A stretch of 64,000 nucleotides of DNA from NCBI GenBank assembly GCA_934757825.1, contig CAKVLP010000001.1, positions 183,267 to 247,266 of the forward strand, given 5' to 3'. The notes beneath the pieces were generated by a model. The model was given only the letters and a program-made list of their open reading frames with translations, did not search any database and was not told where the DNA came from. The position numbers were made by a program, and so were the translations under genes. Positions 3,001 through 62,535 of the stretch are shown one piece after another. Each line of letters opens with the position of its first letter. Within the stretch, counting starts at the first letter, position 1. This stretch comes from an uncultured Clostridia bacterium. Lineage in GTDB: Bacteria > Bacillota > Clostridia > Christensenellales > UBA1242.

Positions 3001-6000
3001 CCATAACAAAGTTGCCACTCGCAACATCTTTGATGTACCAGCCAGTAAGTTTTAGACCACCGCCATTTTCAACTTTGTCGTAGATTACTTTGCTATTATC
3101 GACTGGAATAGTAATTGGCTCGGTAGGTGTAAGTGGTTTGAACACTAGGCTACTATCTACCCTATTCTCAGGGTCAGCCATCTGAATGGTGTAATATGGC
3201 AACGACATAGCAAGCAATGTTGTTGGCTTGTTGATAGGTTCGTCGTTGTAATCCACATAATTTTCGCCATCAAAATACTGCCAATTGCCAAGATAATAAT
3301 CCTCATCGCTCAAAACATAGTCGATTGCTTGCGCCTTACCGCCCATTACTACAAACAATTGTTTTACAATGTTGGTAATTTGATTAAGCGCATAACTTAC
3401 TTTAACCCCTACAACTGGATACAAATAGTTTTTATCCGCTGTAACAGTTACGTTTGTTGTTAGATTGGTTGCATCTTTATTGTATTTGTAATTTGCATTG
3501 TCGCTAACAACCCAGCCCATTGTTGAATAGTCGTCTGTTAATTTGTAGCCATTTAGGTCAACTGTGTCGCCCTCAACAAGGTTTTCTAGTGTAACCTTTG
3601 AGGTTTCATCAAATGTGTAAGTTCCGTCAGCGTTGTAGTTAAGTTCTGTATAGATTTGAAGTGTAACAGTGTCAACTATTACAGCGTCAAATGTCATTGA
3701 AGCGGTCACATTTACATAACGCGACCAGTTCCTTGTATAATTGTAGCCATTCTCGTCGGCCCCTAAGTGCGAATAGTAATTTCCGTCGCTAGTCCACCCT
3801 ACAATCTTTTTGCCAACAAGAGTTTGCTGTGTTATCGCATTTAGCAATCCCGCGTCGGTCATACTAAAACGTGTTGCGCTTGCCACATCGGGCGAATAAA
3901 TCTCAGTTCCTTGCACCTTAAACACTAGCGCAATAACCTTACCATACACTGGTGTAAACGTGTAGTTTTTCACAAATGTAATAGTAACTTCTTGCGACTC
4001 AGATATGTCGTAAGTGTTGCCCAACTCGTCAACCCAAACACCTGTAAACTTGTAGGTGTCGGCGCCGTAGGTGTAAAATTGGGCGGTACTTGGGAAGTTG
4101 AAATATTGTTTTGTTTCGCTATACAAATAACTCTGTTCGGTTTCGACTAGCGTATTAGGATTGTCCACTTTCGCATAATATGTGGTTGTATTTCCTTGGT
4201 CGTCGCGCACATCAAATGTTGCGGAATAGTACAAGTCTTCCCAATATGCATAAAGTTTTAAAATATAGTCATCTTCACTATCAAGAGTAACTGTCCAAGT
4301 GCCCAAGTTTAGGCTTCGCCCATCTCTTGAATTGATGACCAAACTGCCGTTAACAAACGCCTTAGCATTTTTTTCAAACGACCAATCCTTAAACATAGCG
4401 CCAGTTTTTGCGCTCATTTCTGTGCGGTCAAATGACCTTGGCGTAAATTCTTCGCCCGTGATTATGGTCTCGCCAAATGTTTTAAAATCGTCGAGATTGT
4501 TGTAATAATATATTGTGTAATATCTTTCTCTTACTGCATAAAAACTTATGTCAGTTTCGCCCAAAGTGAACTCAGACCATGGTTTGAAAATTTCGGTGCT
4601 ATCACTGCCTTTGATTTTCCAACCAAGCATTCTATATCCATCAACCACAGTATCGCCTAGAAGTGTGATTGTAGAACCCCAATCATAACTTTCTGTTTGA
4701 GATGGGGACTCATCGTTAAGGTTGTTGAAATACCAAACATTAACCTTGTTGGTCTCCCACACTGGATACAATTTTACAAACATATCACTACTATAAGAGT
4801 CGATTCGATAACCGTTAATAAAATCAACATTTGTGGAATTTAGTGATGTCGACCAGCCTTTAAAGGTGTATTTATCTTTTGTTGGAACTATGTCGGCTTC
4901 GCTTAAACCAGTCGCCGATGTGCCCACAGTGTATGTCGCGCCCTCAACAAGTTTTACCACCCTGGTCGAAGCACTATTGCTTCTCTCCATATAATATGTG
5001 ACGCTAGTGGTTTTTTTCAAATCCAAATATATCTTGAAAGTGTTGTCTTGCGCTTGGTCAAAGTATTTTTGAACATTTACAAAGTCAAACTCTGCACCCA
5101 TTTCAAGTTTTAGATTTTCGTCCTTAGACTCATAGGCAATTTGTCCCAAATAAAATGCAATACAATCGTATTCGCTAAGCGCCTGAGTCTTAGATAGATA
5201 TTCAGTAATTTTGTCGTGCGATAGCAAGTTGATAGGTGTCGAATAGTCGTATGGGTATTTTTGGCTTGCCCCGCTTAGATTGTAATATTTATTGGAATAC
5301 TTGTAGTAATACTCTATGGTGTAAGACACCGATTCAAATACTGGTTTAAGTTCTTTGTGTTTGTCCATTACGATATATGTGCCGTCCACATATGCGTCGT
5401 ACTCAATGCCGTCTTGGTCTGCCCATCTGCCAGTAAACACGGATTTGCTGTCCTTGTAAACTTGGTCGGTTCTAATGGTGTTAAGACCGATTTCGCTTAG
5501 ATACAATCTAGTGCCCTTAGCGACAACTATGTCGTTAAGAATAATGCCGTAAATGGTCACTCCGTCTGTATCAAATGTCAGCTTTACCGCATCACTCCAA
5601 TCAGCATACAAATTAAGGATATAAGATTTTTCTGTCCCTTCAATCTGCTCTATTAAATAATCTTTAAGTGTGCCCGATAGCACCGATAGTTTTTCGCCAT
5701 CGGCGTAAACTTTACCGCCGTTCGCTAGTTTCCAGCCATTTAAGATGCTGTCGTTTTTAACAGGGGAAACTGTGAAATTGCTTGCTGTGATGGTATATAG
5801 ATTTCCGATATAAATCTCATCTACGTAAGTTTCCATTTTGTCATCATTGTCTGACATCTCGCTATAATAATTGTAAGTAACCTTAACTTTTGCTGGGTTG
5901 TAAATTGGGTAAATGTCAAGTGGGCTAAAAATCGTCATTCCTTCTAGGTGATAATATGTAGCACTATTTCCGCCACCAGAAACACGCCAATTACTGAAAT

Positions 6001-9000
6001 TGTAACCCAAGTATTGTCTATCTGCGCTTTCAAGTTCGTTATAGACTTCTGGCAAAATGCTATCAATAACATCATCGTACTCGATAAGATAATTTTTGAT
6101 AATTACAGTTTGGCCTGTGATAGGATTATTGAAAATAAACCTTACGTTAAACGTTTGTTTTGACGCAACAAGTGTTAGCATTAAGTCGGATTTAACAATT
6201 AAGTTTCCGCTCTTAACATCAAGCGTGTAGTCGGGTTTAATTGTGCCGTCGTTGCCTGTGTCGCCACTTATTAGCCAGCCCGAATATTCGTAACCTGAAA
6301 GATAGTGTGGCATTGTAAAGTTGTTAAGAAGTGTTTTTACATTTACTCCGTATTTAATATCGGTTTCAATGTGGTCTGGCGTGCCGGCTTCAATTCCCTC
6401 TCCGCCAAATTTAAATGTAACCTTAAATTTCAAATCTTCAAAAATAGGATAAATATTGATGTAGTAATCGTTGCTGGAAGATGGATACAATGCAAACAAA
6501 TTATTTTCGTCGTTCTTAACCGAAATCACATATCCAATTTCGCCTTTTACAAGTTCAATTCCGCGATTGTTGTTCCAGCCAGCGAAGCCTTTGCCAACCA
6601 CCGCGCTGGTGTTAAGAATAATGTTTTTCTCTTCGCCGTCTGCGGTGTAATATTTAACCGCGTTCCCCGCAAACAAAATCTCGTCTGTCACGTCTCTTCT
6701 GCCATCGGTGAACTTTTCTTTGGAAATATAAACTAGCCCTGCGCTATAATTCACAGCGCTACTAAATGCAAGTTGGTTTATGTTTATAGTGTAAATTACA
6801 GGCTTCCACAAAGCATAAAGCAAAGTATCTTTTTTAAACGATTGATATTTTTGTGTAGCGTAATAAATGTCGTCGGAATGATTTGCAACAAAGTCGCTAT
6901 AACTTAATCCTTCGCCTTCCCTATCAATGTCTGTCCACCCTACAAACTCGTATCCCGGTCTGCGTGCGGTGGTTTTTGGAAGTGCTGGCATTGTGATGTA
7001 CAAGTTTCCAGCACCAAGCATTGTAAAGTCGTCGGCGCTTTTGCCGTCTAGCCACTCAACATCATCGGCACCGTCATTGAATGTGATAACAACGTTTTCA
7101 ATCCATTTTGCCGTAAATGTTAGGAGTTTCGCTGGCATTTTTAGATACAATGTAGAAATATCGTCTGTTTTGTTGTACACGGTGTAATAGGTCGGAGTAT
7201 CAAGCACAATTTTGCCATCAAAGTAGATAAGCGTGTTGTAGCCGGTGTATTTTTCGGTGTATGTTTCGGAGTTGTAAATGTATTTTGAGTATTCACTATT
7301 AAACCTTATTGGGTTTGACCTGCCAGCGCCGTCAATTTCGGTGCCGTCTTTTAGTGTCCAGCCCCACAAGATATAATCTTTGTGGCCGTCGGTTTTGGTT
7401 ATTAGATATTTCTCGTCGTTAACTGTGCTTATTATGTATGCCGACTGAGTTGTGGTGTATCGATACACCACCGATTTCCCGTTTTCGTCAACCAACTGAT
7501 TTTTTAAGTCCGCACTGCCCGAATACGACACAACATCGTTTTGCGAGGTGTTAAGGTCGTAGGTAAAGTAGTTGTCATTTTCTATAAACACAGCATACAA
7601 GTTTTTCTCTGCCGAGTTTAAGTAAATTCCGTTTTCTTCCCTCACGTGGTTTCCAACATCGTAGTTGTAGCCCGCGATGTAAATTGGAGTTGCGCCGATA
7701 ATCAAATCCGAACTACTTGCCCAACCTATAAACGACTTATTTAGTGGAACCGTGTATGTTGTGCGCAAGTTGTTAATCCTAGTTTGATACTCGGTGAATT
7801 CGATTAGTCCCGTCGAAGAAATGCTCTTAACTAGGTCATTAAATGGATATAGACTTATTGTATTTTTCTCAACATTGACAGTGCCTAGTCTAATGTTTTT
7901 ATAACCCGTACTTCCATAGGCGCTGTAATAGTAGTTAATTCTATAATAACTCTTCCACTGTGCATAAATAGTGATTGTGTCATCCACGATGTTAAAGTTT
8001 GATTTATCAAAATAAGTCTGACTGCCGTAGCCGATGTTATATCCTGTGCCGTCGCGCGCCGTGTTCCACGAAAGCAAGGTGTAAAGTGGAAGTCCTGTCT
8101 CGTCGTTTTCGCGATACACAACATCTTTAAAGTAGTTAATGTCGTGCAAAACACCAATCTCTGTTTCGTCACGCAAAATTTTCCAGCCTTGCGATGCAAC
8201 GCTTGTTTTAACAGTCGACCCGTCGTCGCTTGTGATTTTGGAATTATAGTTTTTAGTGATGACCGCGGTCATTGTAGAAGTATCTATGTAGTTTTGACCA
8301 AACGGCAAATTCAAATCAAACTTTATGGTGTATTTTATTGGCGTCCACTTTGCAAACAATGTAATATATGCGTTTTTCTCATCTGTGGACGAATAACTCC
8401 TAATTGTTTCGCGGTGCTCGTCTGTTATGGAATTTACATCGAAGTATAGCGGATCGTTAATTATGTTTATGTCACGGGTTTGGGTCATCGTGAAATATCC
8501 ACTCTTAACGTACAATTGGCTTAGTTTTAGCGGAACCAAAAACTCCGGATCCAAATACCAGCCAGCAAATTCCAAGTTGCCATAACTATCTATTGGCGCT
8601 TGGATTGCCTTAACACTATCGTTAAACTGCGTGTAGATTGTGTTGAAAGTTGTGTATTGACCAATATATGTTAGTCCCCCCGTAACCTCGTCTATTCTAG
8701 GTTTAAGGTTGGCAATTTTAGAACCCGTAAAGTCCAAATCTTGCGACATATATCTAAGTTCTACTTGCACTGGTCGCCAAACCGCATAGAATGTAAGGTT
8801 TTGCGCGCGCATAGGATAATCGTCAGTGTAAGTGGTGGCAGCGCCTGACGACATTCCCCACCCTTCAAAGGTGTAGCCGTATTTATGTTCCGCCTTATAA
8901 TCGGAAATTTTAATTTCGCTTCCGTCCGAAATCGTAATTAAATCGTTGTCCCTAGGAAATAAAATAATGTCCTCAATTGTGTATGGGACAGTGTAGTCGC

Positions 9001-9430
9001 GACTTCTTGTTGTGTTGTATGTAACCTTAACATCATCGTCCAAAACAAGTTCGATGTTGTATTCTATAAGTTCAAATTTGCCATAGACTTGCATATGCGA
9101 ATTAAGTTGTTCGTTGTAATCAAATGGCTTTTTATATTCGATATCCTTATACCAACCCTCAAAGGTGTAGCCCTCCATAAATGGCGCTGGCAAATTAGAC
9201 AAGTTTCTGCCCTTTTTGACATCAATAACATCGTACTCGGTCACGTTTTTGATTTCACCGGTCTTGTATCTACTAACAGTGGTCAAAACCAGCCTAACCC
9301 TAGTATAATAGTTTATGTAAACAAGTATGGAAAGCAGACAAAAAACAACCGCTATACTTACAAGCAGTATGTTTAAAAGGAGCTTATTTCGTTTGCTCAT
9401 TTTTACATTTTCTACTTTCCCAGATTTCAT
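2..9430 (-). CDS. giant membrane-anchored cell-surface protein, C-terminus beyond window edge (>3,140 aa in window); tandem Listeria-Bacteroides / InlB B-repeat-like modules
   Basis: Not in the ORF track because there is no stop in the window. The minus-strand frame (plus-strand triplets starting at positions = 2 mod 3) was spot-checked at 2-60, 1502-1560 and 4262-4320 with no tta/cta/tca. ATG at 9430 follows AAAGGG-7nt (in-frame alternative ATG at 9400). N-terminus MKSGKVENVKMSKRNKLLLNILLVSIAVVFCLLSILVYI is a basic stretch plus one TM. The repeat-end motif recurs about 20+ times, e.g. GYTFEGW (nt ~9165-9185 and ~8860-8885), PGYEFVGW (~6940-6965), EGFEFKGWY (~30-60). Only short shadow ORFs occur in other frames. 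Confidence 0.85.
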   Translation of the reverse strand, partial: MKSGKVENVKMSKRNKLLLNILLVSIAVVFCLLSILVYINYYTRVRLVLTTVSRYKTGEIKNVTEYDVIDVKKGRNLSNLPAPFMEGYTFEGWYKDIEYKKPFDYNEQLNSHMQVYGKFELIEYNIELVLDDDVKVTYNTTRSRDYTVPYTIEDIILFPRDNDLITISDGSEIKISDYKAEHKYGYTFEGWGMSSGAATTYTDDYPMRAQNLTFYAVWRPVQVELRYMSQDLDFTGSKIANLKPRIDEVTGGLTYIGQYTTFNTIYTQFNDSVKAIQAPIDSYGNLEFAGWYLDPEFLVPLKLSQLYVKSGYFTMTQTRDINIINDPLYFDVNSITDEHRETIRSYSSTDEKNAYITLFAKWTPIKYTIKFDLNLPFGQNYIDTSTMTAVITKNYNSKITSDDGSTVKTSVASQGWKILRDETEIGVLHDINYFKDVVYRENDETGLPLYTLLSWNTARDGTGYNIGYGSQTYFDKSNFNIVDDTITIYAQWKSYYRINYYYSAYGSTGYKNIRLGTVNVEKNTISLYPFNDLVKSISSTGLIEFTEYQTRINNLRTTYTVPLNKSFIGWASSSDLIIGATPIYIAGYNYDVGNHVREENGIYLNSAEKNLYAVFIENDNYFTYDLNTSQNDVVSYSGSADLKNQLVDENGKSVVYRYTTTQSAYIISTVNDEKYLITKTDGHKDYILWGWTLKDGTEIDGAGRSNPIRFNSEYSKYIYNSETYTEKYTGYNTLIYFDGKIVLDTPTYYTVYNKTDDISTLYLKMPAKLLTFTAKWIENVVITFNDGADDVEWLDGKSADDFTMLGAGNLYITMPALPKTTARRPGYEFVGWTDIDREGEGLSYSDFVANHSDDIYYATQKYQSFKKDTLLYALWKPVIYTININQLAFSSAVNYSAGLVYISKEKFTDGRRDVTDEILFAGNAVKYYTADGEEKNIILNTSAVVGKGFAGWNNNRGIELVKGEIGYVISVKNDENNLFALYPSSSNDYYINIYPIFEDLKFKVTFKFGGEGIEAGTPDHIETDIKYGVNVKTLLNNFTMPHYLSGYEYSGWLISGDTGNDGTIKPDYTLDVKSGNLIVKSDLMLTLVASKQTFNVRFIFNNPITGQTVIIKNYLIEYDDVIDSILPEVYNELESADRQYLGYNFSNWRVSGGGNSATYYHLEGMTIFSPLDIYPIYNPAKVKVTYNYYSEMSDNDDKMETYVDEIYIGNLYTITASNFTVSPVKNDSILNGWKLANGGKVYADGEKLSVLSGTLKDYLIEQIEGTEKSYILNLYADWSDAVKLTFDTDGVTIYGIILNDIVVAKGTRLYLSEIGLNTIRTDQVYKDSKSVFTGRWADQDGIEYDAYVDGTYIVMDKHKELKPVFESVSYTIEYYYKYSNKYYNLSGASQKYPYDYSTPINLLSHDKITEYLSKTQALSEYDCIAFYLGQIAYESKDENLKLEMGAEFDFVNVQKYFDQAQDNTFKIYLDLKKTTSVTYYMERSNSASTRVVKLVEGATYTVGTSATGLSEADIVPTKDKYTFKGWSTSLNSTNVDFINGYRIDSYSSDMFVKLYPVWETNKVNVWYFNNLNDESPSQTESYDWGSTITLLGDTVVDGYRMLGWKIKGSDSTEIFKPWSEFTLGETDISFYAVRERYYTIYYYNNLDDFKTFGETIITGEEFTPRSFDRTEMSAKTGAMFKDWSFEKNAKAFVNGSLVINSRDGRSLNLGTWTVTLDSEDDYILKLYAYWEDLYYSATFDVRDDQGNTTTYYAKVDNPNTLVETEQSYLYSETKQYFNFPSTAQFYTYGADTYKFTGVWVDELGNTYDISESQEVTITFVKNYTFTPVYGKVIALVFKVQGTEIYSPDVASATRFSMTDAGLLNAITQQTLVGKKIVGWTSDGNYYSHLGADENGYNYTRNWSRYVNVTASMTFDAVIVDTVTLQIYTELNYNADGTYTFDETSKVTLENLVEGDTVDLNGYKLTDDYSTMGWVVSDNANYKYNKDATNLTTNVTVTADKNYLYPVVGVKVSYALNQITNIVKQLFVVMGGKAQAIDYVLSDEDYYLGNWQYFDGENYVDYNDEPINKPTTLLAMSLPYYTIQMADPENRVDSSLVFKPLTPTEPITIPVDNSKVIYDKVENGGGLKLTGWYIKDVASGNFVMENGKRKVFNFGEVIKIKADLIGMGLSSSTYTYGLVPIFDYTLLGIKLVNLYDAIEYKITAEDGKVYYNIVSGIYEFSVLKNSKIETKNNQLRFEAYLLGNGGITYDGYDPVKAVVTIERKIKQGYEAFKLTDGWYRCVYDTTTGKYTKGSALPASSNLTEYISVTANEPSASVVTTTIGLADEYKNQIADTSRGYFIVDENQVSRVSINDTAGKAIIIKLYLVDGYELGRNASSEVIVLNEMMHDITSDLNFSVSINNGEVSITYRANKNATIYFMLKPCSEVRLKLQLATSLVDKINDVSVDVYYENNYQYTLLETVTFKVLKTGLATTSGTIPSGAKIKVVVNLNSAYYYVKSLILSGTSNGTQTINASVLEGYNVSLAPVINIVLDARTFSVDYYFDGTLMESSTPTELAETNEIVLKTYTTPTGKTFGGYKIIGQNSAGQEVLLRFVSTTVGNSVTFNISDLIKNTSNVTSKNTVIKLNGICYVNSVQITVAGEDKKSQVEGQDSKVFYVPIGSTVTANGNTLSMLTGRYALDDNGDLVGVTSTTITLTMLGSYEFSKWLKDGSEFSEFIVTQNATIQGVAVTGNSTLKINVEDLSETSGCNLQDVNVVTISALTSKSDTFTTYYDPTLKNASYSSTFTTGAKVEFDYTLAKGFSLNKIILTYNDISSETYSDLSKFADACGIVITQNGTKLVIWEAIYNIDIKVVVERQSFGVSVVLIPTEQASGALNELFDNLKDSVTIATIGETEIKTDQSSVSTEQLYRKVLKFNISPNSDYFELNKILVNGVSVFPEGQLDYANFNVMTNELTLYSGGKGENLVISVGVKFKTFSVVFHRPDASEFDAGELSSTGINPSASYNYNDSATFNTSDFAIVENTVTISGRNYEFTKWLYYKGDYEADVLNGVVNMANLTEISDLNYTFNKDNGNLHLFGVWDDLYNVAFTSNGTATNMPNNLNDVKLSDTVSLASIPSREGFEFKGWYYVYGGNTYYLNYNGTS

Positions 9431-9454
9431 TCGTTTACCCTTTTTATATATATT

Positions 9455-9483
9455 ATTATAATATATATAAGCAAATCCGACAA
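9455..9483 (-). promoter_or_regulatory. candidate sigma-A-type promoter for the giant surface-protein gene
   Basis: Minus strand reads TTGTCG-17nt-TATAAT, 25 nt upstream of the ATG at 9430. No hairpin or terminator lies between the GerC stop (9518) and this site. Confidence 0.4.
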
Positions 9484-9517
9484 ACAAAAATCAAATGTTC
9501 AAAAAATATTTTTAACC

Positions 9518-13300: not shown

Positions 13301-13455
13301 AATTTTCACCTTTTACATATTTTGCGTGAAAAGAGTTACTATTATGCAGTGGTAAACATTCAATTTTCTTATTTTTTTAAGCATTAAGTGTTTACTTTTT
13401 TTTATTTTGTGATACAATACTTATACCAAATAAAAACAAAAGAGGAAAATTGAAA

Positions 13456-14061
13456 ATGCGAAAATATACCGACCGAATTGACATCTTCGAAGAAATTCAG
13501 ACACCAGCACAAGCAGAGCGCGTAGCCGCTATTGGCGCTTCATATTACACCGAAGCCCCTGTTGGATATGGCAAATATCACGTTACTGATATGTCTAAAT
13601 ATGAAGAATTTGAAGACGAAAACAAAAGATTACAAGCATATATGAAAATTGCCGGTCAAATTTGCGAACTTAAAAAGGATTACAACAAAAAAGATGGCTA
13701 TCCAGAAGGATATGTTCAAACTTTTATAAACTACTTTGATACTAGCACTCTTGACAAAAAGGAAACCAAGTTATTTCACAAGGCAGCCAAATTGGTAGTT
13801 AAAAATAGTGCTGAGGAAAAAGCAAGAGCACAAGCAGAACGCGTAAAAATAGCAAAGGAAAGGAGGCAGGCCAGACAAGCCCAATATGCAAAACAAAGAA
13901 GAGCAGATAAAAAGGCTGGCATTACTCGCGAAGCCAAACCAACTGTGCCTCCTACTGCTAGTAAGAAAATTAGTTCTTTGGAAGAATTCCGCAAAGTTAT
14001 TCAAGACTCACGCGAAAGAAAAAACGAATTTAAAAATCGCGAAACAACAAAAACTAGATAG
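13456..14061 (+). CDS. hypothetical protein with strongly basic K/R/Q-rich C-terminal half
   Basis: AGAGGA-9nt-ATG at 13456 (the track start at 13450 is TTG). Followed by the bidirectional terminator at 14105-14142. No family recognised. Confidence 0.55.
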   Translation: MRKYTDRIDIFEEIQTPAQAERVAAIGASYYTEAPVGYGKYHVTDMSKYEEFEDENKRLQAYMKIAGQICELKKDYNKKDGYPEGYVQTFINYFDTSTLDKKETKLFHKAAKLVVKNSAEEKARAQAERVKIAKERRQARQAQYAKQRRADKKAGITREAKPTVPPTASKKISSLEEFRKVIQDSRERKNEFKNRETTKTR

Positions 14062-14104: not shown

Positions 14105-14142
14105 TAAAAAAAGATTAAGTAATCTCTACTTAATCTTTTTTT
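14105..14142. terminator. bidirectional intrinsic terminator
   Basis: 11-bp perfect stem aagattaagta/tacttaatctt with a 5-nt loop, A-run on the left and T-run on the right. It lies between convergent genes ending at 14061(+) and 14205(-). Confidence 0.8.
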
Positions 14143-14204: not shown

Positions 14205-16859
14205 CTATTCCCCTTCCCCGCTTTGAACGGTCTCAAAAGTTATGTTAAACTTGCCTACTGTTTGTTCCATCTCCTTGTAAGTTCCGTCATCTTGTTGGAC
14301 AAGTGAATTTTCAGTTTCGTCAGTTGTATTTTCAACTCGGGTTATTGTAACTTGTTTTTTTGCGCCAGTCTTTGCAATCATAGCGCTAAGAATCTCGGCA
14401 AACTTTGTAATTCTTTGTTCGTCGGTCATTTCAGATAGTTCGCTTTCGGTAACACCGTTTGCGGTCAATGTGCCGTCAATTAGTTCCTTAGCAATAGAAA
14501 CATTGCTTGACCTTGTAACACCATTGGAAAGCGCGTATTCAAGGTATTTTTGAAGCCTTAAATTCGATAGCAAACTTACATTTGTTCCGATTACCACAAA
14601 CACACCCTTATCGCCATTAGCATTGTATTCAAATTGTAGTAAGCTCTCTGGCAAGTAATAGTACACAGTTTTGGTTGTTGTCGCACCCGCAGAATCAGTT
14701 AAAGTCACTTTAATACCCTCTTTATCATTGACGATATGCGACATACTGTATGTTTGCGCTTGATAGATTGTAAACGATTGCGACCCAAACAAATATTTTA
14801 CTTGTTCGCCATTGTCAAGAGTGGACATAAAGCATTTCTGAACAGATCCATTTACATCAACAAAAGATTTTTTAAATACAAGTTCTACTTTCTGAGCATC
14901 ATTTCTTAGCATATAATCTATAGCATCTCTTAGTTCTTCGCTCGACCCAACCACTCTTGTTGTGGTGCCAGTAAGTGGTTTTTCATAAAAACTATAATAT
15001 TCTGTGGTGTTCATCATTTTGTATAGTGGTTCGTTTTCAAAAGCGATGTGGTCGTCCTCAATATACTCATCGTCAACCAAGAAATATTTGTGACAAGATA
15101 GTTCGTGAGTGTCTTCGTGGTAGTATATTAAATATGGATGAATCCAATCGGTAGCATAAACCATTTTTTGGTCACCCGTGCTAAGTTCTGTCCACGTAAT
15201 GTCAACAACGTACCACTTATTGTCAATATATACCTTGTTCCAGGCGTGACCGCCTTCTCCCGAATCGGTCTTAGCGTTTCCCACAACCCTAACCGCGTCC
15301 ACTCCTTCCATATTGCAAAGAAGTGCAAATGATTTGCTCATTGCGTCGCACACAACAACGTGTGAGTCAGATAAAAACATTCCTTCCAAATAGTAGCATG
15401 CCCTATCCATAGGGTTGATGTTGTTGTTTTTATTAAGCGAAAGGCGATAAGTTTTCCAGTCGTAGGTGCTATTATTCATGATATAATCAAATATTGAAAG
15501 TGCTTTTTCGTAGTCGGTCATTCCGTCGTAGATAATAGTGCACAAAATTCGTTTTGCCTCGGCGTATATTAGTCCCGCGCGACTTGTCTTATCTGTGATA
15601 ATTGGCGTAACATGATTTGTAACTGCCCACAAAAGTTCCTCACTTGTTGCGACTTCTGTGCTTAACATCCAGCCATCGGAAACGAACTGGTGGGTGTTAA
15701 TATCACGTTTTTTGTAAATACTAGACTCGGAAATTGTTTCGTAATATGGTGTTGAAATTGCTTGTTTTAGTTCGGGGTCATTCTTAGTAGCATCGGCATA
15801 ATCTGGCTCTTTAACGCTATACTTACACGATAGATTGAATACCTTATCATCGGTCTTAGTGCTCTTTTTGCTAAGTGTAGGCATTGATGCAAAGCCATAA
15901 GTTTCGTAGTAGGAATATAACAATATATAGTCGTCGGCAGTGCCGGTCATTGTGTCAAAATATGTATCGGAATAGTTGTTGTAAAACTCCTTGCTTACCA
16001 TAAAGTCAAGGGTTTCTAGTCGATAAATAAATGCGTAATAGTATATGTTTTTAAGTTCGTCTAAATTTTCGATGTAATAATCGTACACACCGCCTTTAAA
16101 GATGTAATAATTATCGGTGTAAATGCCACGCTCTGCTATATCCATAGGGTTGTAAAACAATAGATTTGAAGCATACACTGTGCCGTCGTTATATTTAGCC
16201 CCAATCCTTACAACCACCACATCGTGCGAATATGTGTCACTACTTAAAAGTGTGTATTCTTTTAATTCTGTTTCAATGTTTTTAACTCCCAGCGTATTGG
16301 AGTAAATAGAGATTACAAATGTTTCAAAATTCGTGCTATCACTAGGGTCAGACCAAGTGATTCTTTTGCCCGAAATGTTGACCGATGTAGGATTAAAATT
16401 GCTATCCGACTTGTAATACACTTCGCTTGAATTTAAGATAGACAAATTATTGTCAAGCACATCAGTCGCGTCGCCATAAATCACCGAAGTTGTAATCGTC
16501 TTTTTACCGTCGATATAATCCCCACCGCCAATGGCTTTAAGTTGGAATCTATACTCACCCGCTTTCACTTCACCTGCGTTTGTTTTAGGCAAATAGTCGT
16601 AGTAATTGAAAACGTGCTGGCTAGACGATGTATTCTCTTTAATGGTGGTTATGACGTTTTCGTTTAGATAAACTTCATAACTCGATGCGGAATAATTTGC
16701 GTCAAATGTGATGGTGTAGGCTTCTTTGTTGACGGTTATTGCGGGAGTGGAAAGTTTCGAACTACTAAAAAAGTCGCAACCACCAAGTATTCCAGCGCAA
16801 AGCACCAAAACTACTAAGCCACAAATTATTCTTCGTGAAATTTTTTTAAATTTGTTCAT
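14205..16859 (-). CDS. lipoprotein with transglutaminase-like (Cys-His-Asp) core domain
   Basis: Lipobox LCAGILGG-C at residues ~20-28. Core motif VCDAMSKSFALLCNMEGVDAVRVVGN…GGHAWNKVYIDNKWYVVDITW matches the transglutaminase-like/BTLCP pattern C…H.W…D. AAAGGAT SD. Last gene of the 20950-14205 operon. Confidence 0.75.
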   Translation of the reverse strand: MNKFKKISRRIICGLVVLVLCAGILGGCDFFSSSKLSTPAITVNKEAYTITFDANYSASSYEVYLNENVITTIKENTSSSQHVFNYYDYLPKTNAGEVKAGEYRFQLKAIGGGDYIDGKKTITTSVIYGDATDVLDNNLSILNSSEVYYKSDSNFNPTSVNISGKRITWSDPSDSTNFETFVISIYSNTLGVKNIETELKEYTLLSSDTYSHDVVVVRIGAKYNDGTVYASNLLFYNPMDIAERGIYTDNYYIFKGGVYDYYIENLDELKNIYYYAFIYRLETLDFMVSKEFYNNYSDTYFDTMTGTADDYILLYSYYETYGFASMPTLSKKSTKTDDKVFNLSCKYSVKEPDYADATKNDPELKQAISTPYYETISESSIYKKRDINTHQFVSDGWMLSTEVATSEELLWAVTNHVTPIITDKTSRAGLIYAEAKRILCTIIYDGMTDYEKALSIFDYIMNNSTYDWKTYRLSLNKNNNINPMDRACYYLEGMFLSDSHVVVCDAMSKSFALLCNMEGVDAVRVVGNAKTDSGEGGHAWNKVYIDNKWYVVDITWTELSTGDQKMVYATDWIHPYLIYYHEDTHELSCHKYFLVDDEYIEDDHIAFENEPLYKMMNTTEYYSFYEKPLTGTTTRVVGSSEELRDAIDYMLRNDAQKVELVFKKSFVDVNGSVQKCFMSTLDNGEQVKYLFGSQSFTIYQAQTYSMSHIVNDKEGIKVTLTDSAGATTTKTVYYYLPESLLQFEYNANGDKGVFVVIGTNVSLLSNLRLQKYLEYALSNGVTRSSNVSIAKELIDGTLTANGVTESELSEMTDEQRITKFAEILSAMIAKTGAKKQVTITRVENTTDETENSLVQQDDGTYKEMEQTVGKFNITFETVQSGEGE

Positions 16860-16886
16860 AATAATATCCTTTAAAAAGTAAATGTA

Positions 16887-17726
16887 CTAATTATTTATTC
16901 TATTACCCTGATTGTTGATTCCCTTTTTCATATTGTTTATCCAGCGTCTTGGTGCGGTGTTCCACGCATTGGACTCGTCGACACCCAAGTTTGCCACATC
17001 GGCTTGAACAGCCTCAATGTTAACAATGATTTCCGCTTTTTTGCCACCAAAATTGTTGGTGGTCTTAACGTAGTCAAACTGAATTTCGTTGAAAAGTGTC
17101 AAGCTTTGCTGTGGTTTTAGCGAACCATAATGATAATAGTAGCCGTCCCATTTATAACTTTCTATTTCTTCTGTCGGATTGTAAATGTGCCAGTTTTCGG
17201 CGTCAATGTCGCTTATAACTGGAACAATAACGTCGGTGTATTCCACCCCGTCTAACATAAGCGAAATTTTGTAGCGGACATAAATGTTTGCCCCCTCTTC
17301 GTTTTCGTCACCACTAAAATTGTCGGAGTTTCTAACAGCCACCACAACGGCAAATTTGTCACCAGGGTAAATCTGCTTGTATCTAATACTTTGATCGGTG
17401 GAAGAACCCTGCTCAGGGTCGAGGTTTTCGGTAAGTTGGGTACTAAGTTTTATTTGTGCGCCACCTGTAATGTCGGCTTTGTTTCGCGTGAAGAAATACA
17501 CCGCAACCCCAATGCCTCCAAGCAAAATCAAAACAAGCAGTATTATGCCAATTCGCTTAAACCAAAGCCAAAACGCGCCTTTTCTATCGTCGTCATCGTC
17601 GTCTCTTCGGTTAAGTTGGTCATTAAGTTTTTTAATGTTTTGGTCTCTTTCCGCATTTGGCTTTGGCGAAGAAGAACCCGGCGCAGACGTGTTTTGTCTA
17701 TTAAAATCGTTATCTTTTGATGCCAT
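16887..17726 (-). CDS. TasA/CalY-like domain protein with N-terminal cytoplasmic extension and TM anchor
   Basis: About 55 aa of polar N-terminus including RRDDDDDDRK, then TM IGIILLVLILLGGIGVAVYFFTRNKADITGGAQIKL, a PGD strand (YPGDKFAVVVAVRN), and the terminal strand IIVNIEAVQADV shared with the three upstream paralogues. GGAG SD. Confidence 0.6.
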   Translation of the reverse strand: MASKDNDFNRQNTSAPGSSSPKPNAERDQNIKKLNDQLNRRDDDDDDRKGAFWLWFKRIGIILLVLILLGGIGVAVYFFTRNKADITGGAQIKLSTQLTENLDPEQGSSTDQSIRYKQIYPGDKFAVVVAVRNSDNFSGDENEEGANIYVRYKISLMLDGVEYTDVIVPVISDIDAENWHIYNPTEEIESYKWDGYYYHYGSLKPQQSLTLFNEIQFDYVKTTNNFGGKKAEIIVNIEAVQADVANLGVDESNAWNTAPRRWINNMKKGINNQGNRINN

Positions 17727-17863
17727 ATCCTTCTCCTTTTAAGTTTTTTTTAACCTTGTACTTTATCCTTATATTGTTTTCTTAATGTTGTTTTTTATAT
17801 TGCTTTTGTTATTATTTTCTTTATTATATAACTTTTTTTTGATGATTTATTTTGTCAACTATT

Positions 17864-18556
17864 TTAGTCGTGTCCCCAAACTTCGTGATATTTAGCGTTA
17901 GTAACACCCGCTGCAAGTGGGTCTGAAACACCCTCTACTTGTAATGTGTCTACTGTAAATAGGAAAGACAATTTTTTAGATGCAAATCTATTGTCAAGCG
18001 CTAGCGAAACCTTAATTCCGCCATTGATAAATGTAACCACTTGACCTGGATTTAACTCACGCGCAATGTTGGTCGAACCGCGAAGTTTTAACACGTACCA
18101 GTAGTCGTGCTCAACGCCCCTACTAAAATCAACCAAAACCCAGTCCTCTGGCAAAACGTCTTTGTCCACAAATCCCTCTGTGAAGCCCTCAATCATTCCT
18201 TCCCAACTAACTGGCTGGTTGTTTTTGTCGTACACGTCTTCAAAGTCGACGATAAGTTTTGCTCTTACATAAGCCGTTGACGAGTCGTCTGCCATCTGAA
18301 CACCGATGTTGATTTGAAGTTCATCGCCCGGCATAACCGCGTCTGGCGTGCCTATTGACACATCGCTCATTGTAATGTCGCTGGTCATATTAACCACAAT
18401 TGGCTTTGCAAATGTGATGTTTAAGTGTTGGGTACTTGTCTTAATGTACCACGCAAATGTAAACGAGAAAACAGACAACACGCACACAAAAATTGCAACA
18501 ACTATGTACAATGTCGACAACATATTAAGTTTTGATTTCTTGCGTTTTTTGTTCAT
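17864..18556 (-). CDS. TasA/CalY/camelysin-like secreted protein (SipW-type signal-anchor motif)
   Basis: N-terminus KKRKKSK plus hydrophobic segment ending FTFAWYIKTS (compare GTFAYFSD of CalY/TasA). MPGDELQINIGV strand. Terminal strand FLFTVDTLQVEG. GGAGG-7nt-ATG. Confidence 0.6.
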   Translation of the reverse strand: MNKKRKKSKLNMLSTLYIVVAIFVCVLSVFSFTFAWYIKTSTQHLNITFAKPIVVNMTSDITMSDVSIGTPDAVMPGDELQINIGVQMADDSSTAYVRAKLIVDFEDVYDKNNQPVSWEGMIEGFTEGFVDKDVLPEDWVLVDFSRGVEHDYWYVLKLRGSTNIARELNPGQVVTFINGGIKVSLALDNRFASKKLSFLFTVDTLQVEGVSDPLAAGVTNAKYHEVWGHD

Positions 18557-18611
18557 CTATTTCCTCCTTATTATTGTAAATTGATTAGTAATTTGGGCTT
18601 AAATATTGCTC

Positions 18612-19211
18612 TTATGCACCCACAAAGGTTTTAAATGCCGATGGAGCGTTTGCCCAGCCTTCGACTCCGCCTTGGATAAGCGCCTTACAAGCACCCGCTT
18701 GTGCTTGAACCGCGCCCACTGTCACTTTTAGCGTAACCGATTGTCCCGCATCGGGATTTCCAAAATCAAGCGTCCTAAAAGCGTCGCAGAATGTAAGAGT
18801 CGTGTTTTGTGTAACTTTGCCTTTGTAGAAAAAGTATCCTTTTGTGTCGTTAGTGTCGCCACCAAGCCACAAATTGCTTTTGGGAACTGGTTTAATTATA
18901 TCGCTTGCCTCAACGTAAACATACAAATAAATATCGCCACTTGTGGACTTATTTGTAATCGTTAGGGTGTAATCGGTGCCTGTGTATGTGGTGTTTGGGC
19001 TAAGCACTTCGGCAAACTTAATTTTGCCGTCCGAATTAGGGCCTCCGCCAATCGTAAACAACACTTGTCCAGCAGTGATAGCACCGCTTACGCTATGCGT
19101 ATCAAATAGATACGATAAGGTTATGGAGGAAACAAATGTTATGGTTAGCACAATTGCCATTGTAAAAATAATAATGCACGCTACTCTGTCTTTTTTAGTC
19201 CAACTACTCAC
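18612..19211 (-). CDS. TasA/CalY/camelysin-like secreted protein (SipW-type signal-anchor motif)
   Basis: GTG start with GGAGG-6nt. Hydrophobic segment ending ITLSYLFDTHSVSGAITAGQV, closely parallel to CalY FAYFSDKEVSNNTFAAGTL. Terminal strand LKVTVGAVQAQA. Confidence 0.65.
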   Translation of the reverse strand: MSSWTKKDRVACIIIFTMAIVLTITFVSSITLSYLFDTHSVSGAITAGQVLFTIGGGPNSDGKIKFAEVLSPNTTYTGTDYTLTITNKSTSGDIYLYVYVEASDIIKPVPKSNLWLGGDTNDTKGYFFYKGKVTQNTTLTFCDAFRTLDFGNPDAGQSVTLKVTVGAVQAQAGACKALIQGGVEGWANAPSAFKTFVGA

Positions 19212-19366
19212 TTTCTTCCTCCTTTTTTAGTTTGTTTAATTTTGTAAATCTATTTTAAACTGCTTTGCTTATTTTCTCTATTTTTTGCTTACTTTTTCTC
19301 AATTTGCAGTAATTGTAGTTTGTTTAACTTTTGTATTATTTAATGGTCTATTTTACCCCTACAACA

Positions 19367-20950
19367 TTAGACTTCTTCTATATAATAGGCGTCGATAAAC
19401 ACGTCGTAGTTTACGGGCACGTGTACAAAACAATACATTGTTGTGTCGCTTGTCAAAACTGGCGTGGTCAAGGTCATTATTTCCCATTGACCGCTTCCAC
19501 TATATGTACCCGACGAATTACTTGGTCTTACCGCCGTCCAACTGTAATTGCCACCTTGCAACTCAACTTTTGCAACAACATAATTGCCGTCTGCAGTTTG
19601 TCCCGTACTTGTACCAGTAGGCATTGCGCTCTTATAAGCAAAACTAAACCTATACGCTTTGCCCTTTTTGCCTACTACTGTTTTGAATACTCGATAATTA
19701 TTTGCAGTGCCAGATGCCGAAACTTTTAGGCATTTTGCTCCGTCATAAGAATCGGTGTCGATAATAGACAATGTACCATTTGTTTGGTTTGACAAAATGG
19801 TTGTTTCGCCTGTGGCATATGACTCAAATGAGCCATCGATTGGTTCTAAGTGTTTACTTGCGCCATAGACTGTGCTAGACGTCGAACTAGTTGCTCCGTT
19901 CCAAGAATACATTGGAAGTATCGCCTTGCTTACTCTATCGTAAAACTTGCCAGATTTGTCAGGAGTAAGATAGCACAAATAATCGCCGTTTTTATCGTAG
20001 ATTTTGATACTGGCATATTTTACGTCTTTGCTCCACGTTTCGTCCCAGATAAGACCTATGTACGATTGGTTTTGGGCGGTGCTATCCACACTTTTTATTG
20101 TGAAAGTAACAGTGTGCATTGCACCATTTGTGAATGTGGATTCTGGAAGGTCTGTCTCGACGTCAAGTTTGTTAAACTGCCACTTTCCAGATGCATTGAT
20201 GCCAATCCAAGCGTTGTTGTAAGTGCAGAAGAAAATGTTTTGAGACGCGCTTGTTGTGCTAGCGGTCATTTCAATTTTGCTAATGTTTTCCCATTTGATT
20301 GCTAGTTTTGGGCCTACAACTTCCGTCGCTGCTTTTGATATTGTAAAATTGTTGGCAAACCAGCCAGCTGGAGTGTTGTCCCAAGGATCTCGAGAGCCCA
20401 AGTGATACACTCCGCCTGTGTAATCCACCATTTCGGCGATTATGCGGATTTTAACTTTTTTATTGGCGCCCTCAGCTGTAGGGGTGATGTTGTTTATAAG
20501 CGAAACGCTGGCGTTTGGAGCCAATACCGAATTGTAATAGTAATAACCCGAATAGGTGTTTTCTATGTTTTCATCGCTTGCAAGGAAGCCATTGTTTATG
20601 GTAACCGATTGCAAGTGTCTTGTTGTAGCGATTTGTTTTGTGCTTTCGTCCATAATGATTGCATAATAGCATCTTAGGATTGCATTGGTTGTGCCCTTGT
20701 TGGTAACTGTGGAATTAGTAGTTGTGGTCAATGTGGAACCCGTAGCACCAAGCGTAACCTCGAAGGTTGAAGATGTGGTGCCAAGCCCTGCCGACGCAGA
20801 AGCCGTTTTGGACGAGCCCGTATTTTGAACCGTGCTATTGGCATACAACCACGACAAAGTAAAGTCGCAAACAAAATAAAAAAGGGTTAGCATGATAAGA
20901 ATGCTAGCAAGCAAGATTATTGAAGTCTTTTTTGTTTCCCACTTTTTCAT
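19367..20950 (-). CDS. multidomain secreted protein: TasA/CalY-like N-domain + LamG/ConA-like middle region + C-terminal CBM_4_9-like jelly-roll
   Basis: Signal-anchor ending FTLSWLYANS. Strand KVKIRIIAEMVDY closes the first domain. C-terminal LEPIDGSFESYATGE…KCLKVSASG…YDVFIDAYYIEEV resembles carbohydrate-binding modules (NGxFE…iDdv). First gene of the operon. Confidence 0.6.
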   Translation of the reverse strand: MKKWETKKTSIILLASILIMLTLFYFVCDFTLSWLYANSTVQNTGSSKTASASAGLGTTSSTFEVTLGATGSTLTTTTNSTVTNKGTTNAILRCYYAIIMDESTKQIATTRHLQSVTINNGFLASDENIENTYSGYYYYNSVLAPNASVSLINNITPTAEGANKKVKIRIIAEMVDYTGGVYHLGSRDPWDNTPAGWFANNFTISKAATEVVGPKLAIKWENISKIEMTASTTSASQNIFFCTYNNAWIGINASGKWQFNKLDVETDLPESTFTNGAMHTVTFTIKSVDSTAQNQSYIGLIWDETWSKDVKYASIKIYDKNGDYLCYLTPDKSGKFYDRVSKAILPMYSWNGATSSTSSTVYGASKHLEPIDGSFESYATGETTILSNQTNGTLSIIDTDSYDGAKCLKVSASGTANNYRVFKTVVGKKGKAYRFSFAYKSAMPTGTSTGQTADGNYVVAKVELQGGNYSWTAVRPSNSSGTYSGSGQWEIMTLTTPVLTSDTTMYCFVHVPVNYDVFIDAYYIEEV

Positions 20951-21088
20951 TGTCTACCCTAAATATAATTCTGGAATTATTTTATAATAATTCGCATTTT
21001 TAGTAAAGCAAATTTAGTTAATATTATATATATAATTTATTATGTGCCAAAATTTTGTCACAATTCAGTCAGCCCTCCTTTTCACGGC

Positions 21089-21120
21089 AAAAAACAAAAA
21101 ACACCCGATTCCACGAGTGT
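21089..21120 (-). terminator. intrinsic terminator downstream of degV paralogue 1
   Basis: On minus-strand RNA: acactcg-tggaat-cgggtgt (7 bp including one G-U) followed by TTTTTTGTTTTTT. Confidence 0.65.
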
Positions 21121-21155
21121 TTTAAGGTGTGTTTTGTGTATTTTCCCATTTACAA

Positions 21156-23597: not shown

Positions 23598-24494
23598 TTA
23601 TTTTTTGAGGGTTTTTAAAAGTTTTAAAAGTCCTAGGTCATTTACCAACCCTATCCTTTGGCCATTACTAAACAAAACCATTGTGCACTTGCCTACCTCG
23701 CCTACACTTTGAAAAGCGGAAAACTTTAAGATAATTTTGTTTTTATCCCAATAGCACACGCCAAAATCCGCTTTGCCATAAGGCACCACAATCTTTACTT
23801 TTGGATTATAAAAACCCTCGCCATATATCACCAAAGTATCCTTATATTTTGGGACACAACCATAACAACTAAGCGTCTGGCTCGGCAAGTTTGACCTATC
23901 CGAAAATGTTTTATACTGAATGCTGTTTCTACACGACACAACAAAATTAGCGGGGATTTCTTCCCTTACTCTACACCCCTCCATTATGTGGCAATTATCG
24001 CCGACACTAGCATACACCTTTACATTATTATCAAAAACAACATTATTGCCAATAATCGTTTTTTTGACATTATCTACTATGTTATTGTCACAAAGTTCTA
24101 CATAATTGTCAATAGATATATTATTACCGAGTTTGTATCCGCCTCCGATATAGTTATAGTTTCCATATATGTATAGCGGGAAATAGACATCGGCATATGG
24201 ACTAATATAATTTGAACACAAGCACAACGTAATGTTTTTGGCGCGTGCCAAGTCATCGAGTGAAACGTCAACATTGTGTGCAATTATGTCCTTAGTAATT
24301 ACATATGTCACTATCGCAAATAGCCCGTTTGCACATTTTATTTCGAGCCTCTTTTCAACATAGTCTTTGGTTAGTGTTTTGCAAGTTTTTAGCACCTGGT
24401 TCTCGTCGTACATATAGTTTTTGAAAATATTGTTTTTTATTTTTCTCAAAGCTCTAAGAGAAAACTTTGAGAAATCTATGTTTAATTTATCCAT
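23598..24494 (-). CDS. hypothetical protein with hexapeptide-like (left-handed beta-helix) repeats and a beta-rich C-terminal domain
   Basis: Central NISIDNYVELCDNNIVDNVKKTIIGNNVVFDNNVKVYASVGDNCHIMEGCRV resembles LbH acyltransferase repeats. No catalytic assignment is possible by eye. Confidence 0.45.
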   Translation of the reverse strand: MDKLNIDFSKFSLRALRKIKNNIFKNYMYDENQVLKTCKTLTKDYVEKRLEIKCANGLFAIVTYVITKDIIAHNVDVSLDDLARAKNITLCLCSNYISPYADVYFPLYIYGNYNYIGGGYKLGNNISIDNYVELCDNNIVDNVKKTIIGNNVVFDNNVKVYASVGDNCHIMEGCRVREEIPANFVVSCRNSIQYKTFSDRSNLPSQTLSCYGCVPKYKDTLVIYGEGFYNPKVKIVVPYGKADFGVCYWDKNKIILKFSAFQSVGEVGKCTMVLFSNGQRIGLVNDLGLLKLLKTLKK

Positions 24495-59218: not shown

Positions 59219-59296
<78 letters not shown>

Positions 59297-59316
59297 ATAT
59301 TCATTTTACAAAGTAA

Positions 59317-59345
59317 AGTATATTACAAATTTTTATATTTGTCAA
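59317..59345 (-). promoter_or_regulatory. sigma-A promoter for the initiator tRNA
   Basis: Minus strand reads TTGACA-17nt-TATACT, about 20 nt upstream of the tRNA 5' end. Confidence 0.65.
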
Positions 59346-59483
59346 TAGTTTTTAGTGATTTTACTGCTGTCTTTATTATTATATGCCAAAAAGGCAGATT
59401 AAAATTACTCCAACGCACTTATTTTTGCCACCCAACATCATCGCAAATATTATCAAATTTTGTAAAGAAATTCTAAAATACCC

Positions 59484-59512
59484 TTGACATAAAATACAAA
59501 GTATTGTATTAT
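59484..59512 (+). promoter_or_regulatory. sigma-A promoter for tRNA-Met/tRNA-Glu
   Basis: TTGACA-17nt-TATTAT, about 20 nt upstream of tRNA-Met. Confidence 0.65.
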
Positions 59513-59532
59513 TACATTGTCTAAAATTTCGT

Positions 59533-59609: not shown

Positions 59610-59625
59610 AATTACATCTGAATAT

Positions 59626-62503: not shown

Positions 62504-62535
62504 TAAAAAAACACCAGTAAGTCTGGTGTTTTTTA
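62504..62535. terminator. bidirectional intrinsic terminator
   Basis: acaccag-taagt-ctggtgt flanked by AAAAAA and TTTTT. Confidence 0.75.

Follow-up and report, generated by a model that had tools for sequence, protein, structure and literature searches.

We propose that five consecutive minus-strand genes in a 64,000-nucleotide stretch of contig CAKVLP010000001.1, from an uncultured Clostridia bacterium, form a cassette for a SipW-dependent, heteropolymeric surface fibre of the TasA/BsaA type, assembled by donor-strand exchange and served by a dedicated Cys-His-Asp enzyme (probability about 0.55). Throughout, "the window" denotes this whole stretch, numbered from its first letter. Genes A to D encode very divergent relatives of the TasA/BsaA biofilm-fibre proteins, and gene T encodes a lipoprotein with a transglutaminase-like core. 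All five open reading frames (ORFs) listed in the sequence-only reading, an earlier annotation of this DNA made from its letters alone, are present and co-directional:

19367-20950, minus strand: gene A, 527 amino acids (aa)
18612-19211, minus strand: gene B, 199 aa, GTG start
17864-18556, minus strand: gene C, 230 aa
16887-17726, minus strand: gene D, 279 aa
14205-16859, minus strand: gene T, 884 aa

The relationship of A to D with known matrix proteins emerged from a transitive, deep profile search. Homologues of gene B form only eight clusters among 5.8 billion proteins. The B-family profile, searched exhaustively against 1.84 billion representative proteins, retrieved 56 proteins at E <= 1e-3, mostly 190-220 aa long and matched over their full length. 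We aligned 50 proteins, comprising the window's B, eight close relatives and 41 distant hits, and scanned every member. TIGR04090, the BsaA family of SipW-dependent biofilm matrix proteins, was matched by 26 of the 50, Pfam Peptidase_M73 by 23, TIGR04088 (SipW-dependent-type signal peptide) by 20 and the TasA model NF046066 by seven. Against a profile of the distant hits, built without the window's own clade, hhalign placed the families of gene B (99.7%, P 2.8e-26), gene C (98.8%, P 5.8e-17), gene D (98.3%, P 1.5e-14, C-terminal domain only) and the gene A N-domain (97.2%, P 3.5e-11). A hidden Markov model (HMM) of the distant TasA/BsaA-like proteins recovered exactly four of the window ORFs of at least 60 aa, namely B, D, C and A, with E-values of 2e-35, 7e-23, 2e-20 and 1.6e-13, the next window ORF standing at 0.22. 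By profile comparison, A to D are thus very divergent relatives of TasA and BsaA, as the sequence-only reading had proposed when it recognised four TasA/CalY-like proteins. That reading also treated the four as paralogues of one another, for which the direct evidence is uneven: hhalign firmly relates only the N-domain of A to B (95%, P 2e-8), while the A-D (65%) and D-C (45%) comparisons were weaker.

Two sequence features tie the set to the wider superfamily. At the end of the hydrophobic segment lies a motif that lines up with the G-T-L-A-Y-F-T-D of canonical superfamily members, and the closing strand, phi-x-phi-x-A-x-Q, stands in register with the TasA strand GNSIKLQFSFEATQ, the TasA sequence having been verified against PDB 8aur. 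The closing strand that had been noticed within the four proteins is therefore found in canonical members and in TasA as well. Compared with TasA alone, the B-family profile gave an insignificant result (hhalign P 0.32), the sole local alignment being the shared last strand, and PDB sequence searches with either gene B or the B-family profile returned noise only. Members of this superfamily can fall below every curated model and so be missed by current annotation.

The ordered cassette A-B-C-D-T recurs in more than 15 loci, and its order is retained down to ~30% identity (for B). Carriers are uncultured Clostridia metagenome-assembled genomes from human gut samples. Type-I relatives share the same block with the window, consisting of a DegV gene, A, B, C, D, T and the GerA operon; conservation of this kind could on its own be inherited synteny, and hence loci with different flanks are decisive. 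In L014, L015, L017, L019, L020, L021 and L022, a gene encoding a SipW-type peptidase comes first, followed by A-B-C-D and T. L019, L021 and L022 have extra C/D-type copies, and L016 begins in the same way, its contig ending after C and before D and T. Measured against the window's ortholog groups, genes of the different-flank loci reached 92-100% each, except for gene A of L015, which was low against every profile. Neighbourhood co-conservation, suggested earlier as a check on the operon, therefore holds even where the flanks differ. Three type-I loci have a gene of the deoxycytidine monophosphate (dCMP)/cytidine-deaminase family inserted between D and T (L009, 12109-12507; L011, 7245-7688; L018, 9515-9922); the window's deaminase-family gene is at 62533-62946, ~45 kb from the cassette.

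The peptidase of L014 scored 56 bits against TIGR02228, the archaeal/endoplasmic reticulum-type signal peptidase I (cut-off 51.85), and E 1e-13 against the SipW model. Five aligned cassette peptidases keep the Ser-His signature, with SGSMEP and THR, and close relatives of the cassette-linked SipW are labelled Christensenellales or Clostridiales by their sources. Judged from this gene distribution, the missing sipW of the window is a trait of its lineage and not of the system. T was also considered as a SipW substitute and rejected, given that T and SipW coexist in the same cassette.

The pairing was also approached from the enzyme side, by using the T alignment to seed a scan of metagenomes. 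Above 500 bits there were five close relatives, of which four lie in a cassette and one, L032, stands alone. Beyond these, a sister family of 75 members at 176-240 bits, mostly from one abundant gut taxon, occupies a housekeeping context, and 74 of the 75 lack a TasA-like neighbour. This distribution implies an association specific to one enzyme subfamily, with stand-alone family members. The sister-family proteins (L024-L099) are ~840-860 aa long, have the transglutaminase core and are abundant in human-gut metagenomes. Judged by their translations, the genes flanking the sister family resemble sigH, rlmB and mini-RNase III on one side, and Ppx/GppA and AlaRS on the other; L032, read in the same way, adjoins sigH-like, rlmB-like and mini-RNase-III-like genes. 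At L041 (2181-10885) a sister-family transglutaminase gene is divergent from a GerA operon, which is followed by two TasA-like genes; no other sister-family locus has either a GerA operon or TasA-like genes.

The anatomy of the subunits and of T is as follows:

20306-20950, minus strand: N-domain of gene A (aa 1-215), TasA/BsaA-like, with a signal segment ending FTLS/WLY (here and below, the slash marks the probable cut)
19370-20305, minus strand: C-terminal extension of gene A (aa 216-527), lineage-specific, without recognised family
17565-17726, minus strand: putative cytoplasmic tail of gene D, ~54 aa; tails of 50-100 aa are kept in orthologues
17481-17564, minus strand: single predicted transmembrane helix of gene D, without a SipW-type site
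16776-16787, minus strand: lipobox ILGGC of T, kept in most orthologues
16152-16742, minus strand: two FN3 domains of T (aa 40-236), from the structural model and Foldseek
15186-15524, minus strand: transglutaminase-like core of T (aa 446-558), PF01841, with Cys504, His538 and Asp553

Each of A to D has exactly one N-terminal hydrophobic segment, and the motifs that the sequence-only reading quoted are all in the translations. Its attribution of a small-aromatic-aromatic, SipW-type motif to all four proteins agrees with the motif pattern in A, B and C only. T-x-[AS]-[WY]-[FLY] closes the segment in 12 of 13 A orthologues (13 of 13 if the looser SLSFL is accepted), 12 of 13 B and 13 of 13 C, whereas gene D reads VAVYFFTRNK at this point and T-x-[AS]-[WY] occurs in none of its 12 orthologues. 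According to passages of PMC10269814, TasA depends on SipW, its dedicated peptidase, and its cleavage site is immediately followed by an aromatic residue. Because the motif is present in A to C and absent from D, and given the TasA/SipW precedent, we infer that a SipW-type enzyme cuts A to C, while D remains membrane-bound. Gene D is probably an uncleaved membrane anchor, its tail and helix fitting the earlier description of a membrane-tethered protein.

Gene B is the minimal subunit; its signal segment ends ITLS/YLFDTHS, its closing strand reads VTVGAVQAQ and its C-terminus carries a W..AP..F helix motif. In the AlphaFold2 (AF2) model of B, a beta-rich core scores ~85 on the predicted local distance difference test (pLDDT) and residues 1-47 are disordered. 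In the segment of B that precedes the membrane-spanning part (aa 4-16, WTKKDRVACIIIF), W-T-K-K-D never varies in the close family, a degree of conservation not usually expected of a signal peptide that is supposedly discarded. Gene C combines FTFA/WYIKTS (T-x-A-W-[YF] in 13 of 13 orthologues) with a PGD strand, the closing strand FTVDTLQ and an invariant D-P (D212-P213) after that strand. Gene A ranges from 370 to 544 aa in the window's lineage, compared with 211-288 aa in relatives with other flanks. Its residues 216-527 had been called a lectin tip, a label for which neither Pfam nor PDB sequence searches gave support, Pfam finding no family and PDB no significant hit.

Directly after the last beta-strand, W-x-x-[AST]-P-x-x-[WF] is found in 12 of 12 D orthologues, 10 of 13 B orthologues and the window-clade A orthologues (for example WNTAPRRW at aa 255-262 of D and WANAPSAF at aa 186-193 of B), as well as in the distant TasA-like hits P0021, P0023, P0028, P0047 and P0062. 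This element might be a docking or processing site. The only conserved Gln of the subunits is the superfamily-wide residue of the A-x-Q strand, which is Q or E in D. No LPXTG-type C-terminal sorting signal was present in any of the five proteins, nor was a class III type IV pilin motif (G/F-x-x-x-E) within their first 60 residues; no sortase family match was found in the five, family scans having covered 21 window ORFs.

T matches PF01841 (Transglut_core) at E 6.7e-10 and 39.6 bits, above the cut-off of 23, over residues 446-553, and Cys504, His538 and Asp553 are invariant in 30 homologues, confirming the Cys-His-Asp transglutaminase-core lipoprotein first read from the translation. The AF2 model of T (pLDDT 87.5, predicted template-modelling score 0.87) comprises a signal peptide, the FN3 pair, an alpha/beta domain, the core and extra C-terminal domains. 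Helix 504-517 begins at Cys504, strand 534-545 contains His538 and Asp553 comes immediately after strand 548-552, so that the modelled triad has canonical geometry. The T family holds 31 database clusters, all with PF01841 and none with a source-given name. A MAG6410 family transglutaminase-related lipoprotein (NF045980, Mycoplasma) was considered and dismissed, the partial match over residues 433-723 scoring 44.5 bits against a cut-off of 450. In both sequence and structure the nearest PDB match of the core is Streptococcus pyogenes TglA (9crn; E 4.9e-7, Foldseek E 6.2e-8), and the remaining Foldseek matches of T are tandem FN3 domains. TglA shares the Cys-His-Asp arrangement but is 361-379 aa long, unlike the 884-aa T with its lipobox, two FN3 domains and extra C-terminal domains. 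Literature searches found no publication on the function of S. pyogenes TglA, "TglA" in texts being an unrelated Pseudomonas peptide; hence no function is transferred from TglA to T.

Taken with the precedents, these features suggest the following model. A, B and C would be exported by a SipW-type signal peptide and cut, probably after the small residue in T-x-[AS]/[WY]; the lineage's sipW is presumed to lie elsewhere in the genome, unlinked to the cassette. Cleavage would free an N-terminal donor strand to slot into the beta-sandwich of the neighbouring subunit, the mode of assembly of TasA, BsaA and the archaeal bundling pilus. B is the likely shaft and candidate major subunit, whereas A, the first gene, with its lineage-variable C-terminal extension, is a likely distal or adhesive subunit, and C may be a second structural or adaptor subunit. 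D, keeping its cytoplasmic tail and transmembrane helix, would hold the fibre at the membrane. T would sit as a lipoprotein on the outside of the membrane, with the FN3 domains as spacers, and its Cys-His-Asp centre would mature the fibre covalently. For the chemistry of T we rank cross-linking or anchoring first, proteolytic processing or release next and wall remodelling last. Tentatively, and as something short of probable, we suggest that T transamidates, locking subunits to each other, to the anchor or to the wall, as an enzymatic counterpart of the BsaA isopeptide lock. A more specific version is doubtful: T as a sortase-like but unrelated cysteine transamidase that locks subunits, or couples the fibre to anchor, wall or giant adhesin, and perhaps recognises W..AP..[WF] or D-P, in a fibre that may be spore-associated given the recurrent GerA neighbourhood.

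Several results weigh against the proposed fibre cassette. Direct Pfam and NCBIfam scans of A to D gave no credible match, Peptidase_M73 (PF12389) was not hit at E <= 1, and TIGR04088 had no direct match to the four window proteins, so the direct check proposed with the sequence-only reading failed and the link was made only by the transitive search. The sole trace of a curated model was gene B against TIGR04090, at E 0.49 and 10 bits for a cut-off of 60. Structural comparison, also proposed at the outset, gave a mixed outcome. Foldseek ranked the archaeal bundling pilus (7ueg) second and the TasA fibre (8aur) sixth for the B model, both as near-full-length alignments, but no PDB hit reached E <= 1e-3 and a search of the viral library found nothing; these TasA-class matches are weak (E ~1e-2, template-modelling (TM) score ~0.25-0.30) and stand amid generic immunoglobulin-like folds. 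sipW is absent from the 64,000-nucleotide window, by tblastn and by the SipW profile, as the sequence-only reading had remarked, and all type-I relatives lack it within ±10 kb. In none of the four subunit ortholog groups is a Lys conserved, and a fixed Gln-Lys pair of transglutaminase substrates, sought by conservation, was not found in the subunits. Nor, as its distribution indicates, is the T family exclusive to the cassette: L032 and the sister family stand alone. The data establish homology, ordered co-conservation, the motif pattern and an intact catalytic triad, whereas polymerisation into a fibre, the subunit roles, cleavage and any cross-link made by T are inferred.

The same fibre could instead be accompanied by T as a cysteine protease, trimming a propeptide at W..AP..[WF] or D-P, or releasing the fibre or a giant adhesin. 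Protease activity has long been predicted for most bacterial PF01841 members, and LapG, a transglutaminase-like protease acting on LapA, offers a comparison. The lack of a conserved Gln-Lys pair, the conserved Pro-containing motifs after the last strand of B, D and C, and a giant surface protein of 3,100-6,400 aa adjoining the cassette in nearly every locus type would all suit such an activity. Yet no product of such cleavage is known, tblastn detects no homology between the giant proteins of the two locus types, and T coexists with SipW, hence does not replace the signal peptidase; we regard proteolysis as possible but rather unlikely. Distinctly less probable is a T that performs no chemistry on the subunits and remodels the cell wall, opening peptidoglycan locally for a folded fibre. 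Passages on BsaA/BsaC secretion raise the peptidoglycan barrier to folded proteins above 25 kDa, the stand-alone T-family members in housekeeping contexts suggest a general envelope role, and T is a lipoprotein with FN3 spacer domains. However, Pfam and NCBIfam scans found no recognised peptidoglycan-binding domain (LysM, SH3b, SPOR) in T, its nearest structure is transglutaminase-like and not an NlpC/P60 hydrolase, and the tight 1:1 ordering with A to D argues for a specific partner. It is similarly improbable that A to D do not polymerise and act as monomeric or membrane-proximal TasA-fold surface proteins in an envelope complex with T. The conserved N-terminal regions of all four proteins, including the pre-membrane WTKKD of B, the unlinked sipW of the window's lineage and BsaB, a BsaA paralogue said in passages on that system to form only dimers, are in keeping with this, whereas the donor-strand/cleavage motif of A to C is conserved as in polymerising relatives and SipW heads the cassette in other lineages.

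Where and when the product is made is a separate matter, and our estimate for a spore-associated structure is independent of the enzyme models and combinable with any of them. Such a structure could take the form of an appendage, or of a layer linked to the coat or exosporium, and T would cross-link it as Tgl cross-links spore-coat proteins. The germinant-receptor operon noticed at the outset does adjoin the window's cassette, and an orthologous GerA operon (42-51% identity) lies beside the cassette in three layouts: type I, the loci L019, L021, L022 and L023, and the rearranged L041. It is absent from 74 sister-family loci lacking a TasA-like gene, and PDB names the TasA chain 5of1 "Spore coat-associated protein N". 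Against this, L014, L015 and L020 have the full cassette and no GerA operon nearby; in the window T is set apart from GerA by a terminator and a gene on the opposite strand, and the upstream footprint looks sigma-A-like, with no sporulation-sigma consensus found by eye. The recurrent adjacency may be old, ancestral synteny or may hint at the spore, and on balance a spore location seems somewhat unlikely.

Among known systems, the nearest to the proposed fibre cassette is sipW-bsaA-bsaB-bsaC of Clostridium perfringens, which belongs to the same superfamily, the BsaA model TIGR04090 being the commonest match of the retrieved relatives. Like the cassette, the bsa operon is clostridial and has several paralogues; it depends on SipW, as the cassette presumably does, and BsaA monomers have been described with a disordered N-terminus and a beta core, as in the AF2 model of B. 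Oligomers of BsaA are anchored in the membrane and isopeptide-locked. However, BsaA locks spontaneously through an N-E-K triad, without an enzyme, whereas the cassette always includes a transglutaminase-like lipoprotein and has no conserved Lys or Glu. Judged by conservation within the ortholog groups themselves, the four groups show no near-invariant Lys or Glu for such a triad, and the donor-strand region of B has no conserved Asn. The cassette also lacks a von Willebrand A protein such as BsaC, has four ordered ortholog groups including a dedicated membrane-anchored subunit, and in the window encodes proteins under every curated cut-off. The BsaA preprint noted multi-paralogue BsaA/TasA operons, suggesting that they make heteropolymers; the neighbours that it lists are signal peptidase, sortase, LPXTG, fibronectin, SpaA and choice-of-anchor proteins, with no transglutaminase or lipoprotein.

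Sortase-built Gram-positive pili are encoded by ordered operons of tip, shaft and base subunits with a membrane-bound cysteine enzyme that links the subunits covalently. We use them as a working analogy only, for the ordered subunits and the membrane-bound cysteine enzyme of the cassette. Their pilins contain autocatalytic Asn-Lys isopeptide bonds. The cassette differs in having no LPXTG signal, a different subunit fold family, presumptive donor-strand exchange and an enzyme of transglutaminase fold.

The Bacillus subtilis tapA-sipW-tasA (8aur) and B. cereus sipW-tasA-calY systems have donor-strand beta-sandwich subunits and a SipW-type site with an aromatic residue after the cut, and TasA has the closing A-x-Q strand and the PGD strand in common with the cassette proteins. 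Pairwise sequence similarity is nevertheless undetectable, and the cassette has no TapA or CapP homologue; TapA is described in passages of PMC10151520 as an accessory TasA-like protein that starts or anchors the fibre. Unlike the TasA systems, the cassette has an integral-membrane TasA-like anchor, a transglutaminase-like enzyme in the operon and, in the window's lineage, an unlinked sipW. The archaeal bundling pilus AbpA (7ueg), the second-best PDB structural match of B, aligned over 191 columns, although weakly (E 7.6e-3, TM score 0.25). Passages of PMC9245690 present AbpA as a TasA-like donor-strand filament; unlike the cassette product, it is an archaeal homopolymer with no associated enzyme.

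Our literature searches found no paper describing TasA or SipW paired with a transglutaminase or transglutaminase-like protein, in agreement with the sequence-only reading, whose author knew of no such pairing. We rate as new the divergent TasA/BsaA clade, the fixed four-subunit order, the membrane-anchored subunit and the transglutaminase-fold partner. TasA-class fibres are a main protein scaffold of Gram-positive and archaeal biofilms, and their assembly has so far been described as enzyme-free, by donor-strand exchange, with spontaneous isopeptide bonds locking some of them. Should T act on the fibre, assembly, locking or anchoring would become enzyme-catalysed; the sortase-like transamidase outlined above, if real, would add a third covalent way of building surface fibres in Gram-positive bacteria to those provided by sortases and by spontaneous isopeptide bonds. 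Carriers of the cassette, uncultured spore-forming Clostridia, recur in human-gut metagenomes, and the structure could play a part in adhesion, in aggregation or in the persistence of spores in the gut. A fibre-specific transamidase with defined substrates, if real, would also interest protein engineers.

The transcription unit is delimited by the following signals:

21098-21123, minus strand: intrinsic terminator of the preceding DegV gene, the 5' boundary of the operon (terminator scan; RNA folding free energy, dG, -11.0)
21021-21036, minus strand: AT-rich palindrome ATTATATATATAATAT, a candidate operator, with similar palindromes in relatives
20979-21012, minus strand: sigma-A-like promoter candidate, TTTGCTTTAC (-35-like TTTACT), 17 nucleotides, TAAAAT (21007-20979 in the promoter listing)
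14106-14142, minus strand: AT-rich intrinsic terminator, the 3' boundary of the operon (16-bp stem, T-run; dG -14.7)

The flanking terminators and the absence of internal ones agree with the operon boundaries first drawn. The internal gaps of 155 and 137 nucleotides hold no terminator, folding only to -8.7 and -2.0 kcal/mol, and the hairpin at 14106-14142 was missed by the terminator scanner because it is AT-rich. A Shine-Dalgarno site had been assigned to every gene; those of B, C and D are strong (AAGGAGG-type) and that of T is acceptable to moderate (AAAGGA), but that of A is weak (AGGGTAG). Upstream of A, the footprint TTTGCTTTAC[AT]-17-TA(T/A)AAT occurs in most type-I loci checked. TTGGCA-16-TATAAT at 21050-21023 is closer to the promoter consensus, yet less conserved. 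AT-rich palindromes also lie 5' of gene A in L001, L004, L005, L007, L011 and L018, and we take ATTATATATATAATAT as a candidate operator for some regulator. An Rfam scan of the window found no riboswitch or leader upstream of A, its sole matches being three tRNAs at 59222-59697, two on the plus strand and one on the minus. A horizontal-transfer or prophage origin of the operon was considered and set aside, the base composition being unremarkable (GC content 0.398 in the operon, 0.384 in the window).

Upstream, the cassette is flanked by the DegV gene and a major facilitator superfamily (MFS) transporter gene. On the other side lie an opposite-strand 203-aa ORF, the GerA/GerAB/GerAC germinant-receptor operon and a giant surface protein. 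The last of these, at 2-9487 on the minus strand, runs off the start of the window, is at least 3,162 aa long and has an N-terminal transmembrane anchor and Listeria-Bacteroides (Flg_new) repeats. In type-I loci the giant protein follows the GerA operon, and in L014, L015, L017 and L019 it was seen before sipW. The 203-aa ORF, at 13450-14061 on the plus strand between T and the GerA operon, encodes a charged protein with no family match; an unannotated gene of 164-221 aa has the same position and orientation in L001, L004 and L005. Further upstream of the cassette, beyond the DegV and MFS genes, a 298-aa protein is encoded at 23598-24494 on the minus strand and has a weak hexapeptide-repeat match. 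A gene at the same position was found in L001, with no Pfam hit, and in L009 and L010, with weak matches to Hexapep and GMPPB_C.

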